Below are positions 233 to 56,193 of a stretch of 64,000 nt of DNA, piece after piece. Location of the stretch: positions 107 to 64,106 of the forward strand of contig NZ_JBEVAL010000010.1 of NCBI RefSeq assembly GCF_051297115.1, read 5' to 3'. Below the pieces are notes generated by a model, which searched no databases, had not been told where the DNA came from, and saw nothing but the letters and a program-made list of their open reading frames with translations. Origin of the DNA: Meiothermus cerbereus (GTDB lineage Bacteria > Deinococcota > Deinococci > Deinococcales > Thermaceae). Position 1 is the first letter of the stretch. The number at the start of each line of letters is the position of its first letter. A program made the position numbers and the translations under genes.

Positions 233-317
233 TGGTGCGCGGAGGGGGACTTGAACCCCCACACCTTGCGGCACAAGATCCTAAGTCTTGCGTGTCTACC
301 AGTTCCACCATCCGCGC
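233..317 (-). tRNA. tRNA-Leu (anticodon UAG), class II with long variable arm, CCA encoded
   Basis: The reverse complement folds as a cloverleaf. Acceptor is gcgcgga/tccgcgc, the D-arm is GGTGGAACTGGTAGACAC-like, and the anticodon stem caaga/tcttg carries loop cTTAGga. The T-arm is gggggTTCAAGTccccc and the 3' end is ACCA. Confidence 0.9.
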
Positions 318-383
318 ACGGTAGAAGGGCTTGCGATTGGGGCCAGACTTTTTGTCCTGTGCCCCAATCATTTGCCCTGGTTT

Positions 384-461
384 TGGGGTGAGCGATGGGA
401 CTTGAACCCACGACCCCCGGTTCCACAGACCGGTGCTCTAACCTGCTGAGCTACGCTCACC
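384..461 (-). tRNA. tRNA-His (anticodon GUG) with encoded G-1 and CCA
   Basis: The reverse complement starts with G-1, which pairs with C73. Acceptor is gtgagcg/cgctcac, the anticodon stem ccggt/accgg carries loop cTGTGga, and the T-loop is GGTTCAAGT. Confidence 0.9.
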
Positions 462-2671: not shown

Positions 2672-2786
2672 AAGTGTCTCCATAAGCGAAATGCAAGATG
2701 CCGTACCGAAAGTTCGCTTTAGGAATTGCGCCAGGTATGCATTGACCCATTCCGCTGGTTTTGCCAATCTGCCCTGGCGCAACTTA
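2672..2786 (+). repeat. 115-bp structured dispersed repeat, copy 1
   Basis: 112/115 identical to 34911-35025 in the same orientation. It contains inverted repeats aagcgaa/ttcgctt and ttgcgccagg/cctggcgcaa. Confidence 0.85.
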
Positions 2787-16306: not shown

Positions 16307-17608
<1,302 letters not shown>

Positions 17609-17610
17609 CT

Positions 17611-17733
17611 ACCGTCTATCCCGAAAGGGATCGTCCGCTTGGTGAACATCCGCTTTAGCGGTCTGTCCCAAAGGGGATCGTCCGCCCGGTGAACAGCCGC
17701 GCCAGCGGTCTGTCCCAAAGGGGATCGTCCGCG
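17611..17733. repeat. Tandem 46-47 bp double-hairpin repeats, cluster A (about 2.6 units)
   Basis: Units ggtgaacaNccgcNNNagcggtctgtcccaaaggggatcgtccgcNN start at 17641 and 17688, with a partial unit at 17611-17640. The cluster lies in the metY 5' UTR. Confidence 0.85.
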
Positions 17734-17772
17734 TGGGATTTGGGGCGCTGTTGGTAGGAGTTTTGCTATAGC

Positions 17773-17812
17773 AAAACCCCCTACCAGACGTTCTTTTATG
17801 GCTGGAAGGGGG
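17773..17812 (-). terminator. Riboswitch expression-platform terminator
   Basis: Minus strand has cccccttccag ... ctggtaggggg followed by TTTT. The 5' arm can alternatively pair with the P1 3' strand (gagaaggg), forming an antiterminator. Confidence 0.75.
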
Positions 17813-17830: not shown

Positions 17831-18010
17831 TTCTCTTATCTTTCCCAACCGCCAAGCTATGCCTAGCTTCGAACGTCGTGTGCCTACAACGTTCAGCGGA
17901 TGGGCCGGAATTAGCACCGTGCAAAAAGCTTTCTGGTAATGAGCAGAAGCTTTTTGTGGGTTGCTGCGACTTCACAGGGCCGAATCCCTCCGTCGCTCTC
18001 GATAAAAGAA
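17831..18010 (-). promoter_or_regulatory. SAM-I (S-box) riboswitch aptamer controlling metY-metX
   Basis: Minus strand reads TTCTTTTATC-GAGAGCGACGGAGGGATTCGGCCCTGTGAAGTCGCAGCAACCC, a long P3 hairpin, GGTGCTAATTCC, P4, then AAAGATAAGAGAA. All the core S-box motifs I recognise are present in canonical order. Confidence 0.85.
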
Positions 18011-18090: not shown

Positions 18091-18250
18091 CAGGCCCAGA
18101 GGGAATCATCCTGCTGGTGAACAGCGGCTTCAGCCGTCTGTCCCGAAGGGGATCGTCCACCGGTGAACAGCCGCGCCAGCGGTCTGTCCCGAAGGGGATC
18201 GTCCGCCCGGTGAACAGCCGCGCCAGCAGTCTGTCCCAACAGGGGCCAAC
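18091..18250. repeat. Tandem 46-47 bp double-hairpin repeats, cluster B (2 good units plus degenerate flanks)
   Basis: Units start at 18116, 18162 and 18209 (the last degenerate), with a degenerate partial unit at 18091-18115. The cluster lies between the gcvP stop and the riboswitch promoter. Confidence 0.85.
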
Positions 18251-18296: not shown

Positions 18297-21188
<2,892 letters not shown>

Positions 21189-21261
21189 GGGGTCTCCTCT
21201 CTTCGCTGTTGCAGTGGTAGCAAGCACACCCATTGCAGTCTTTGAAGAATCTTGACCCCAT

Positions 21262-21398
21262 CTGTCCTTTTGCCTGAGAGTGTTATCCCGTCGGCGGGCG
21301 GTGTTCGCCTCTCTCCAGATTGCACTGCTGTGGTCCTTTTGCCTGAGAGTTTCCGGGGTGGTTGCTCCTTCGGCGTGGGGCTGGCCCATCTCTCCCAT
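21262..21398 (-). promoter_or_regulatory. Tandem glycine riboswitch (two aptamers)
   Basis: Minus-strand aptamer 1 is GGGAGAG...ACGCCGAAGGAGCAA...CTCTCAGGCAAAAGGACC. Aptamer 2 is CTGGAGAG...CGCCGACGGGATAA...CTCTCAGGCAAAAGGACAG. Confidence 0.9.
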
Positions 21399-21422
21399 CA
21401 GCAGCCTGCTGCATGTACCTCG

Positions 21423-34303: not shown

Positions 34304-34912
34304 GTGGATAGGAAAAACTTGCAAGCCGTGCTGCGTATGTACGCCCAGGGGTACTTTCCCCTGGGAATGGAGCACGGCATTGGCTGGTTCGATCAGCGGG
34401 CCTATGGCACGCCCTACCGCGCCCTAATGCCCCTCGACGAGCGCTTTCACATTCCGCGCAGCCTGCGCCGGGTGCTGAACAGCAGGCGTTTTGAAGTGCA
34501 TATCAACCGCAATTTTGCTGGGGTTCTGCAAGGCTGTGCGACTCGAGGCGGGTCGTATTCAAGTGAAACCTGGCTCACCCCAGAGGTAGCCCAGCTATAC
34601 CTGAGCCTTCACCAGTACGGGTTTGCCCACAGCTTTGAGGCCTGGCACCAGGGCAGGCTGGCAGGTGGCATTCTGGGTGTAGCGCTGGGGGCAGCCTTTA
34701 TTGGCGACAGCATGTTCTATAGCGTTCCCGATGCCTCCAAGGTGGCCCTGGTGCAGCTGGTGGAACACCTGCGGGTACGGGGTTTTGAAATTTTTGATGT
34801 GCAGGTGCAAAACCCCCACCTGGCCAGATTCGGGGCCATAGAGGTAGACCCCCTCGAGTTTCGCCAGCAGCTTTTTCAGGCCATCCAGAAACCGGCCCGG
34901 TTTGTAGACTAA
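34304..34912 (+). CDS. aat: Leucyl/phenylalanyl-tRNA-protein transferase
   Basis: YAQGYFP, ...PRSLRRVLN.. and GESMFS-like (GDSMFY) motifs of L/F-transferase. Confidence 0.85.
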   Translation: MDRKNLQAVLRMYAQGYFPLGMEHGIGWFDQRAYGTPYRALMPLDERFHIPRSLRRVLNSRRFEVHINRNFAGVLQGCATRGGSYSSETWLTPEVAQLYLSLHQYGFAHSFEAWHQGRLAGGILGVALGAAFIGDSMFYSVPDASKVALVQLVEHLRVRGFEIFDVQVQNPHLARFGAIEVDPLEFRQQLFQAIQKPARFVD

Positions 34913-35025
34913 GTGTCTCCATAAGCGAAATGCGAGATGCCGTACCGGAAGTTCGCTTTAGGAATTGCGCCAGGTATGCATTGACTCATTCCGCTGGTTT
35001 TGCCAATCTGCCCTGGCGCAACTTA
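34911..35025 (+). repeat. 115-bp structured dispersed repeat, copy 2
   Basis: 112/115 identical to 2672-2786. It begins inside the aat TAA stop codon. Confidence 0.85.
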
Positions 35026-43068: not shown

Positions 43069-44382
43069 GTGGGCCTGCCTTCGCTAAACGATGTGATTGC
43101 CGCCATCGCCACCCCGCCCGGCAAGGGCGCGGTGGGGATTGTGCGGGTCTCGGGCAACGGCGCTCTAGAACTGGTCTCTAGGCTCTGGCAGGGCAAAAAT
43201 CCCTACAGACTGGCCGGCGGGCGCTTCACCTACGGTAAAATCTGCGACCCGAACACCCAGGAAGTGCTGGACGAGGCGCTGTTGCTGGTTTTCCGCAGGC
43301 CCCATTCCTACACCGGCCAGGACAGCGCCGAGCTGCACACCCACGGCTCGCCTGCGGTGTTGCGCCGGGTTTTGCAGGCGCTGTTTGAGCTAGGGGCCCG
43401 CCCGGCCCAGCCCGGTGAGTTCACGCTGCGGGCCTACCTGAACGGAAAAATGGACCTGGCCCAGGCCGAGGCGGTGCTGAGCTTGGTAGAGGCCGAGTCG
43501 GACGCCGCCCGGCGTCAGGCCTTGCGGGGCCTGAGCGCGGGGTTGTCGCAGAAGATCGCGCACCTCTCCGAGCAATTGTTCGACCTGCTGGCGCACATCC
43601 AGGCCTGGCTGGACTACCCCGAAGAAGGGGTCGAACCCGCCCAGATTCAGGAAACCCTCGAGCCCGTTTTGCAGGAAATCGGCCACCTGCTGGCCACCGC
43701 CCCCGCCGGGCGCATCGCCCAGAAAGGGGCCCGGATTGCCCTGGTGGGGGCCCCCAATGCCGGCAAGTCCAGCCTGCTCAATGCGCTCTTGGGCTACGAG
43801 CGGGCCATCGTTACCCCCATCCCGGGCACCACCCGCGACTACCTGGAAGCCCCTATGGAGATTGCCGGGGTGCCCATTGTGGCCGTGGACACCGCCGGAG
43901 TCCGGGAAACCCACGACCCAATCGAGAAAAGCGGGGTGGAACGGGCCTTACAGATCGCACAGGAAGCCGACCTGGTGCTCTACCTGGCCGACCAGAGCCA
44001 GCCCCACCCCACCCCGCCACCGCTGCCCTGGGAGCGCACCCTGAAGGTAGCCACCAAGGCCGACCTGGCCCCCGCCTGGACAGCGGATTCGTACCTGCGG
44101 GTCTCGAGCCAGACCGGCCTGGGCCTGCACGAGCTACGCCAGCAAATCCACCAGCGGCTTCTGGGCCAGGCCCCCGAGGGGGAGCTTTGGGTCAGCAACG
44201 AGCGGCATGTGGAGGCCCTGCGCCGGGCCCAAACCCACCTGCACGAAGCCCTGCAAGCCCCCCAGGACCTGGCCGCCCTCTCGATCGAGATGGCCCTGGA
44301 CGCGCTGGCCGAAATCCTGGGCAAAGACGTTTCGGAAGAGGTGATTGACCGAGTATTCCGTAACTTTTGCGTGGGCAAGTGA
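43069..44382 (+). CDS. mnmE: tRNA modification GTPase MnmE
   Basis: IAAIATPPGKGAVGIVRVSG, G-domain GAPNAGKSS and the C-terminal FCVGK motif. Confidence 0.93.
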   Translation: MGLPSLNDVIAAIATPPGKGAVGIVRVSGNGALELVSRLWQGKNPYRLAGGRFTYGKICDPNTQEVLDEALLLVFRRPHSYTGQDSAELHTHGSPAVLRRVLQALFELGARPAQPGEFTLRAYLNGKMDLAQAEAVLSLVEAESDAARRQALRGLSAGLSQKIAHLSEQLFDLLAHIQAWLDYPEEGVEPAQIQETLEPVLQEIGHLLATAPAGRIAQKGARIALVGAPNAGKSSLLNALLGYERAIVTPIPGTTRDYLEAPMEIAGVPIVAVDTAGVRETHDPIEKSGVERALQIAQEADLVLYLADQSQPHPTPPPLPWERTLKVATKADLAPAWTADSYLRVSSQTGLGLHELRQQIHQRLLGQAPEGELWVSNERHVEALRRAQTHLHEALQAPQDLAALSIEMALDALAEILGKDVSEEVIDRVFRNFCVGK

Positions 44383-44454
44383 AAAGTCGAAGGCAAAAAG
44401 CCAAGCACCCCTCGAGCTTTGTCCTTGAACTTCCCACCCTGATGGCGCGCATTC

Positions 44455-44685
44455 GTTGAAAAGCGGCTTCTGTCGTCTGTCCCGAGGGTAATCGTCCCCT
44501 GGGTGAACAGCGGCGCCAGCCGTCTGTCCCGAAGGGGATCGTCCCTGGGTGAACAGCGGCGCCAGCCGTCTGTCCCGAAGGGGATCGTCCGCTTGGTGAA
44601 CAGCCGCTTTAGCGGTCTGTCCCGAAGGGGATCGTCCCTAGGTGAACAGGCTGGTCGGGGCTATGTCCCAAAAGACCGTCCCCTG
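44455..44685. repeat. Tandem 46-47 bp double-hairpin repeats, cluster C (5 units)
   Basis: Unit starts are 44455, 44502, 44548, 44595 and 44641; the outer units are degenerate. Same orientation as clusters A and B. Confidence 0.88.
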
Positions 44686-44724: not shown

Positions 44725-45243
44725 ATGGAGGAGCCCAAAGCGGTAGTCTCAAAACGCAGCCTGCAGACCTATGTGGTTGCGGTAGGGCTGATGGTCATGG
44801 GCCTGGCCCTGGTAGCTTTATGCAGCGCCGCCTGGCTACAGGGCGTCGAGCCGCGCTGGTCGGTGATTCTGTTTGGGCTGCTGGGGGTTTACATGGTGCT
44901 ACTCGGGGTGGATGAAGGCTGGCTGAGCGGGCTCGAGGTCACCCCCACCCACCTGCGCATCCAGAGCTTTGGCCGCTGGACGGAACACCCGCTGCCCCGC
45001 GTTGAGGCCGTGGATGGCCTGCGGGACATCCTGGGCGGTGGAATCCAGCTGGTTCTGATAGCCAGCGAAGGCGAGGCCATCCGGGTTCCGCTGCGCCGCT
45101 ACGCCAACGCTGGCCCCCTGGCCCAGGGCTTGCTGGATGCGCTGTGGTTGAAAAACCCCCAGCTTATCCTGATGCCCCGTTTGGCCAGGCGGCTGGGCCA
45201 GCCCCCCTTCGGGGTTTTGGCCGCTAAGAAATCCAGGCGTTAG
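44725..45243 (+). CDS. Hypothetical membrane protein (two TM segments plus soluble C-terminal domain)
   Basis: MEEPKAVV..., then two hydrophobic helices. The ORF-track N-terminus (44503-44724) is translation of the repeats. Confidence 0.55.
   Translation: MEEPKAVVSKRSLQTYVVAVGLMVMGLALVALCSAAWLQGVEPRWSVILFGLLGVYMVLLGVDEGWLSGLEVTPTHLRIQSFGRWTEHPLPRVEAVDGLRDILGGGIQLVLIASEGEAIRVPLRRYANAGPLAQGLLDALWLKNPQLILMPRLARRLGQPPFGVLAAKKSRR

Positions 45244-56102: not shown

Positions 56103-56193
<91 letters not shown>

Follow-up and report, generated by a model that had tools for sequence, protein, structure and literature searches.

Head-to-tail hairpin units in three spacers of Meiothermus cerbereus, probably copies of a selfish short repeat family

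Three spacers in a 64-kb stretch of Meiothermus cerbereus DNA (hereafter the window, 64,000 nucleotides in all) carry tandem units of 46 to 47 nt that can fold into hairpins, raising the question of whether these arrays are structures kept for the benefit of the host or DNA that maintains itself. The original prediction, made from the sequence of the window, counted about 11 units in three clusters, all on the + strand. Two covariance models built from relatives and run over the window without filters recover exactly 11 units in three arrays on that strand, where 0 are expected by chance, and no further match above noise. Consistent with this, a 23-nt core (GTCTGTCCCGAAGGGGATCGTCC) has nine matches at up to three mismatches, all on the + strand and none expected from 100 dinucleotide shuffles; Tandem Repeats Finder reports arrays of period 46-47 at 17614-17732, 18116-18245, and 44474-44669; and a repeat-family search of the window yields one 10-copy family that covers the arrays. 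The arrays and their parts are as follows.

44455-44681, + strand: array A, five units (covariance-model matches and sequence)
44455-44497 (degenerate), 44502-44544, 44548-44590, 44595-44637, and 44641-44681 (degenerate), + strand: units of array A
17614-17730, + strand: array B, a 117-nt insertion (sequence, core search, and covariance models)
17614-17636 (tail only; model match from 17599), 17641-17683, and 17688-17730, + strand: units of array B
18093-18247, + strand: array C (sequence, core search, and covariance models)
18093-18111, + strand: tail-like remnant in array C
18116-18158, 18162-18204, and 18209-18247 (degenerate), + strand: units of array C

Regularly spaced direct repeats with a palindromic part could suggest a degenerate or orphan CRISPR-like array, or else a coding repeat. 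In the window arrays the units adjoin with linkers of 3 to 4 nt and have no unique spacers, the variable part is itself a palindrome of 12 to 17 nt, and no cas genes lie near the arrays, whose neighbors are mnmE, metY, and gcvP. The 46/47-nt periods rule out a constant reading frame, and terminal inverted repeats are absent from the window arrays. The chance that these arrays are CRISPR-like or coding is accordingly negligible, and the earlier description of a dispersed head-to-tail hairpin family, distinct from a CRISPR array, a gene, or a MITE, is borne out. The associated claim that the repeats have no protein-like reading frame holds for the window but fails for the family as a whole, in which units occur in frame inside genes. 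The arrays have no Rfam match at the gathering threshold, with only noise over array A at E values up to 10. Because GC skew across the window is too slight to identify the lagging-strand template, the common + orientation of the three arrays cannot be tied to replication.

Each unit consists of a 3-4 nt linker, the sequence GGTG-N-AC, a hairpin of varying sequence (hairpin 1), and an invariant 19-nt box, GTCCCGAAGGGGATCGTCC. Hairpin 1 has a 6-8 bp stem and a loop of 3 to 5 nt, follows GGTG-N and precedes CCCGAAGG, and is free in sequence while its pairing is kept. Two size classes can be distinguished. The L class, to which the window units belong, has GGTGAAC followed by AG-NNNN-loop-NNNN-T-CT and measures 46-47 nt; the S class has GGTG[C/T]AC followed by NNNN-loop4-NNNN and measures 41-42 nt. 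Over both classes there are at least 14 different stems, all paired: the inner stem of the L class takes at least six forms (CCGC, CGGC, GCCC, GCGC, ACCC, and CGAC) and that of the S class at least eight, each with a matching 3' arm. Higher-order periods of 92-93 nt are also present in arrays. At two loci (L005, after about 1810, in - orientation, and L029, after 2460), a head at the array end, GGGTGAACAG, is followed about 15-25 nt on by an inverted copy, CTGTTCACCC; head and inverted head form a long terminal hairpin and may be a distinct end module.

The pairing of these hairpins was examined in ungapped alignments of distinct units, 30 of the L class and 24 of the S class. In the two alignments, 98% of the hairpin 1 cells are paired, and three pairs per class carry changes on both sides. 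None of 500 column shuffles reached the observed covariation score or percentage of paired cells, and pairing falls to 26-57% when the partner is slid by one to three columns. Within the window, the covariation noted at one stem position is real, with CGGC/GCCG in the units starting at 44502, 44548, and 18116 and CCGC/GCGG in those starting at 44595, 18162, 17641, and 17688; so are the 1-nt bulge (a T) in the first stem and the free variation of its loop (GCCA, TTTA, TTCA). Two hairpins per unit had been proposed, and the evidence divides between them. The first covaries, whereas hairpin 2 (CCC/GGG) shows rare C-to-U changes only, a loop varying in sequence and length, and no compensatory change in the 30 L and 24 S units; T26 had moreover been drawn into both hairpins. 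Part of the invariance of hairpin 2 is due to ascertainment, since the box served as the search word, and its formation is plausible, if unproven.

Among the non-Watson-Crick cells, G-T/T-G combinations outnumber A-C/C-A combinations by 12 to 2 (two-sided binomial probability about 0.01, with events that are not all independent), an asymmetry that favors folding of the written (+) strand. Minimum free energy predictions also give a longer alternative fold, in which the tail of one unit pairs with the tail of the next; since this involves invariant positions only, it is beyond the reach of covariation. The original prediction read the compensatory changes as selection on structure. Stem covariation does lie far above the controls, and is much better supported by the relatives than it could have been by the window by itself, but it does not speak to a service to the host. 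In palindromic DNA, template-switch correction of quasi-palindromes can also yield compensatory changes, so that covariation shows that the hairpins are maintained and not by which force.

The constancy of GTCCCGAAGGGGATCGTCC-N3-4-GGTGNAC across species and in every reading frame suggests another reading, in which a protein of the host (gyrase, a methylase, a nucleoid protein, or an IHF-like factor, for example) would bind the arrays as double-stranded DNA, at the invariant 30-nt box with its GATC. The regular 41-47 bp phasing would fit such sites, and BIMEs of E. coli bind IHF and gyrase. This reading is nevertheless quite improbable, because binding to duplex DNA explains neither the self-complementarity of the variable segment nor the wobble asymmetry, the units are patchily present among sister genomes, and no candidate protein was found.

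The genes and regulatory features around the arrays, together with ordinary features elsewhere in the window, are listed here.

43069-44382, + strand: mnmE (Pfam TrmE_N, MnmE_helical, MMR_HSR1), upstream of array A
44725-45243, + strand: orf172, encoding a hypothetical 172-aa protein, downstream of array A; query for strain variants
16307-17605, - strand: metY, O-acetylhomoserine sulfhydrylase family (Pfam Cys_Met_Meta_PP, E = 2.9e-126)
17883-18008, - strand: SAM-I riboswitch aptamer of the metY leader (Rfam RF00162, 51.8 bits)
18077-18049, - strand: promoter-like site of metY, TTGACA-17-TACACT (sequence)
18297-21203, - strand: gcvP, glycine dehydrogenase (Pfam GDC-P, E = 9e-200), its 3' end facing array C
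21322-21407, - strand: glycine riboswitch upstream of gcvP, an ordinary feature
236-460 (- strand) and 56103-56190 (+ strand): three tRNA genes, ordinary features

Array A occupies the spacer between mnmE and orf172, in sense orientation relative to the two genes. The metY 5' leader contains array B, which is antisense to that gene, downstream of the SAM-I riboswitch, and adjacent to the Shine-Dalgarno sequence and start codon. Array C is upstream of the riboswitch's promoter. It lies in the interval from the gcvP stop codon (18297, - strand) to the metY promoter and is antisense to both. Relative to local transcription, one array (A) is therefore sense and two (B and C) are antisense. Such positions raise the possibility that the arrays are host-selected cis-acting RNA structures, in which stacks of hairpins in 3' or 5' untranslated regions would guard mRNA against exonucleases, attenuate or terminate transcription, or tune translation, as has been proposed for REP/BIME sequences. 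The location of array B inside a regulatory leader is consistent with this, as are the strong stem covariation, the preference of wobble pairs for one strand, and the folding of array sequences, both strands of which fold better than shuffles (z about -3.9 as RNA). In addition, the upstream gene is on the array strand in roughly 16 of 24 intergenic arrays, orientation counts that are approximate because flank clustering was partly confounded by units within the flanks. Against a cis-acting RNA role, arrays B and C run antisense to local transcription, no intrinsic (U-tract) terminators are predicted in either array region of the window, there is no Rfam match, units occur in frame and in both orientations in coding regions, and the arrays at 44455 and 17614 are missing from the orthologous sites of close relatives, and copy number floats between strains. 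A host-selected RNA function is therefore unlikely. In our best reading, the window arrays are passengers in transcribed spacers, namely the 3' regions of mnmE and gcvP and that part of the metY leader which separates the riboswitch platform from the Shine-Dalgarno sequence; consequences for mRNA stability or translation, if any, would be secondary.

The metY leader (17599-17800, - strand) also contains a hairpin, GGTAGGGGGTTTTGC...GCAAAACTCCTACC, that is kept in four species. The Shine-Dalgarno region, GGUAGGAG, is exactly complementary to the 3' arm of this hairpin, CUCCUACC, and from this complementarity the hairpin looks like an anti-SD/SD translational expression platform of the SAM-I riboswitch. 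The 117 nt of array B sit between the anti-SD and the SD.

The family is known so far from Meiothermus and Calidithermus, within the DNA that was sampled. A search with the core in one genome per species returned eight loci in Meiothermus metagenome-assembled genomes and one chance match, and a search of metagenomes with the 19-nt box returned 97 loci; no copy of the box was found in viral contigs. A permissive regular expression for non-exact tails was tried and set aside, as it gave mostly chance matches. The 11 units in the 64-kb window compare with none in 85 kb from four other Thermaceae genomes. Neighboring units are always head-to-tail, in the window and in the relatives, where units occur in both orientations relative to genes. 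Literature searches by organism, element type, and sequence words returned no description of these repeats, and the hairpin family of Meiothermus and Calidithermus is apparently undescribed so far.

Unit number differs between strains and samples, so that the arrays behave as variable-number tandem repeats (VNTRs). Contigs encoding an identical 172-aa protein have 2, 3, 5, or at least 6 units in array A, and these variants always keep both degenerate end units; the window is identical at this array to GCA_000620065.1 (contig KK211062.1). Elsewhere, one site (seen in loci L040, L053, and L106) has one, two, or three units in different samples, and dnaX has three to five. In one metagenome-assembled genome covering the array A region (GCA_036778495.1, locus L110) a run of N lies inside the array.

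Comparison with sister lineages locates sites at which arrays A and B are absent. The spacer between mnmE and orf172 measures 60 nt in M. taiwanensis (CP021130) and 47 and 3 nt in two further species, and none of these three orthologous spacers (L122, L123, and L124, respectively) contains a unit of array A. Array B is missing from the leaders of metY orthologues with protein identities of 95%, 89%, and 87%, although promoter, riboswitch, and downstream hairpin are all retained there. These metY loci (L118, L119, and L121) contain no units, and alignment with their leaders places the 117-nt array B between ...CCCAAATCCCACGC and GGTAGGAG(N6)ATG on the - strand. Array C has no comparable sister site, as the sister loci have a different gene upstream of the metY promoter. 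As judged from these alignments, arrays A and B are lineage-specific insertions. Array A is also preceded, after the mnmE stop codon, by a non-repeat stretch of about 72 nt (44383-44454); this stretch is likewise absent from the L122 and L123 spacers and may have been acquired with the array. In one Meiothermus lineage (L119, 3296-3583; L120, 2064-2351) the spacer between metY and metX measures 286 nt, compared with 47-81 nt elsewhere; it is without a unit of the hairpin family, other DNA having been inserted there.

Variation in copy number between strains and the higher-order periods of 92-93 nt would both be expected of local minisatellites, each of independent origin and changing by slippage alone, with no mobility. 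The same 38-47 nt unit, however, is present in several species at some 30-40 unrelated sites, with identical stem and loop variants among them, and there are clean insertions opposite empty orthologous sites, even within genes. These observations already contradict a purely local origin, which we regard as very improbable.

Units inside genes were found in several hosts, which were named by Pfam or NCBIfam.

DnaX: three to five units of 42 nt after the DnaX_C domain
Acyl-CoA dehydrogenase: three units of 42 nt
Phosphoglucomutase (pgm): two units of 48 nt
Glutamyl-tRNA reductase (GlutR, hemA-type): in-frame unit or units
Three transposase-type genes with units: an IS4-family transposase, a TnpB-like protein, and an IS701-family transposase

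PanC at one locus (L004) has exactly 30 extra residues after residue 19, corresponding to units of 48 and 42 nt, and orthologues of 281 aa that are 86-98% identical are without them; the adjacent PanB has a C-terminal insertion of 60 nt. In another case (P0004) PanC was called from a downstream start, giving a protein of 253 aa in which the inserted units are skipped. All intragenic insertions are multiples of 3 nt (42, 48, 60, and 90), and units of 46-47 nt are found only between genes. On one strand the unit DNA encodes VPKGIV, RPEGDRP, or WCTG..RRGSS, and on the other DDPLRD..VHP; with several frames and both strands read, conservation is at the nucleotide level.

The IS701-family transposase contains a 14-aa unit that is absent from ISMesi2 of Allomeiothermus silvanus and from a Gloeocapsa homologue. 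We considered this copy as the progenitor of the family and ruled it out, since ISMesi2 and the cyanobacterial homologue are without the 14 residues. The copy of this transposase on an M. taiwanensis plasmid has the 14 residues with a different stem. Across 14 IS701 loci (L007, L022, L026, L039, L044, L047, L055, L061, L062, L071, L075, L076, L092, and L095), 13 sequences share an identical 38-nt unit, including the 19 nt outside the search word, and the flanks around it are about 70% identical between lineages. A purely neutral passenger fails to explain an invariant unit amid such flanks; nucleotide-level constraint and gene conversion are possibilities.

Empty sister sites, copy-number variation between strains, and in-frame units in unrelated genes together form the pattern of selfish or mobile DNA. 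We consider it probable, though with some reserve, that the window arrays belong to a family of selfish, non-autonomous short repeats in Meiothermus and Calidithermus, one that resembles REP sequences and Rickettsia palindromic elements (RPEs) and behaves in tandem as MIRUs do.

To ask where such units insert, filled and empty alleles were compared at five sites: IS701, panC, panB, the metY leader, and a sequence that we call element-2. Element-2 is about 117 nt long and is present as two 97%-identical intergenic copies in the window (2672-2786 and 34911-35025) and also at another locus (L060, 8030-8150); it has an inverted repeat, TTGCGCCAGG...CCTGGCGCAA, and no Rfam match. At two loci (L001 and L006) an array of hairpin units lies inside element-2, after ...CGCAATTTCCCT. 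The native flanks at the five junctions are GATCCCC, GCTCCCGGC, GACCTCC, TCTCCTACC, and AATTCCT. In unit orientation, a TCC ends 0-4 nt before the junction on the 5' side at all five empty sites, compared with 6% of window positions as background (probability about 1e-6, for a rule formulated post hoc, after the sites had been seen). The 3' end of the unit, ...ATCGTCC-N3-4 before the next GGTG, resembles this TCC target. No target-site duplication was found at the five filled-versus-empty junctions, and array ends are not uniform, some arrays beginning with a tail-only unit and some finishing with a head-only unit. Given these uneven ends and the lack of target-site duplication, a precise cut-and-paste model is unproven.

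Under the selfish-repeat interpretation, new sites would be seeded rarely by insertion of one or a few units, the insertions themselves being observed. The written strand may then fold as single-stranded DNA, with an enzyme acting in trans that would recognize the hairpin and its flanking boxes, in a manner akin to REP/RAYT systems or to HUH tyrosine transposases of the IS200/IS605 type. The five empty sites suggest, post hoc, that insertion would occur just 3' of TCC-N0-4. If that rule is real, each unit remakes the TCC motif at its 3' end, and further insertions would land head-to-tail. Arrays then expand and contract by slippage or unequal recombination, as the strain polymorphism shows, and the insertions observed inside genes are only those of a multiple of 3 nt.

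The units combine a strand-biased hairpin whose sequence is free with invariant boxes left unpaired, a patchy distribution, and a target resembling the element end, a combination reminiscent of the workings of REP/RAYT and IS200/IS605 systems. This likeness bears on a possible mechanism and does not imply membership. A low-power tblastn search of the 0.96 Mb of fetched DNA, with IS608 TnpA and E. coli RAYT queries, gave no match to an IS200/RAYT-like protein, and a regular-expression screen of 775 crude gene calls in the same DNA, also of low power, found no HUH-Y motif. More speculatively, the units may be substrates of an unrecognized single-stranded DNA mobilization system in Thermaceae, in which a hairpin between GGTGNAC and GTCCCGAAGGGGATCGTCC would be inserted 3' of TCC-N0-4 and arrays would grow head-to-tail by self-targeting; we put this forward tentatively, as an idea that could well be wrong. 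If true, array formation would be unlike that of REP/BIME sequences, MITEs, or CRISPR, and essential proteins such as DnaX and PanC could be lengthened in steps of 14-16 residues.

Several consequences follow for work on these organisms. The arrays are ready VNTR markers for strain typing of hot-spring Meiothermus, and the addition of 14-16 residue modules to proteins is a natural experiment. They also raise a testable question, namely the identity of the enzyme that mobilizes a hairpin bounded by such boxes. A caveat for genome analysis is that the arrays break assemblies, as in the N gap within array A at L110, and mislead gene callers on start codons, as in PanC (P0004).

REP/BIME sequences, named in the original prediction as the closest analogue, are indeed among the closest, being short stem-loops with conserved unpaired flanks. 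REPs have been defined as imperfect palindromes with a stem of 5-13 bp and a loop of 2-20 nt, with a GTAG or CGTC tag abutting the stem; they occur mostly as inverted dimers, head-to-tail arrangement being rare or negligible, and those with GTAG have an associated RAYT, a Y1 HUH tyrosine transposase by which REPs are mobilized (PMC3733652). The present units share with REP, BIME, and REPIN sequences GC-rich short stem-loops and stems that differ between subfamilies, a mainly intergenic location with occasional in-frame intragenic copies that include replication genes (here dnaX), and lineage-specific abundance. Hairpin 1, with its 6-8 bp, 3-5 nt loop, and 98% pairing, fits the REP stem-loop definition. 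In contrast to REPs, no GTAG or CGTC abuts the stem, the only CGTC falling within the 3' box, 8-10 nt short of the following stem; the units are exclusively head-to-tail and not inverted pairs; and conservation extends over a long 3' box of 19 nt together with a 5' box of 7 nt.

Mycobacterial MIRU-VNTR loci are numerous and dispersed, mostly between genes, and consist of direct tandem units of 40-100 bp whose copy number varies between strains. An obvious palindrome is lacking from MIRUs, which keep a fixed orientation to transcription and contain small ORFs coupled to the flanking genes (PMC5056196). The dispersed tandem units described here, with copy number that varies between strains, behave in the same way, but differ in their covarying hairpin, their occurrence in both orientations, and an intergenic length of 46-47 nt that is not a multiple of 3. 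The units of the relatives, though not those of the window, further resemble the Rickettsia palindromic elements, selfish palindromic repeats that lie in frame in protein genes without destroying the host gene. Those elements are single insertions of about 100-150 bp in Rickettsia, whereas the present units are 41-48 nt long, often tandem, and mostly intergenic, and unit size and host taxon set them apart from RPE-1 to RPE-10.

The BOX elements of pneumococci (boxA-boxB(n)-boxC) have an internal module of about 45 nt that is repeated head-to-tail in variable number and can form hairpins, between terminal modules that are distinct or degenerate. The units described here are similar tandem modules of that size, without established A and C end modules and in another taxon and sequence. 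Elements of the IS200/IS605 group (IS608, ISDra2) would be comparable in their strand-specific hairpin with conserved flanks and their insertion beside a motif resembling the element end; the units differ in having neither a transposase gene nor defined left and right ends. CRISPR arrays are distinguished by unique spacers and cas neighbors, here replaced by abutting units with 3-4 nt linkers and other genes, MITEs by terminal inverted repeats and the duplication that is absent from the five junctions, and Rfam families by the lack of a covariance-model match. The family is one of small selfish palindromic repeats, a known kind and not a categorically new one. If it is as described, a Thermaceae repeat joins the covarying hairpin of REPs, the tandem VNTR behavior of MIRUs, and the in-frame gene colonization of RPEs, features that have so far been seen separately.
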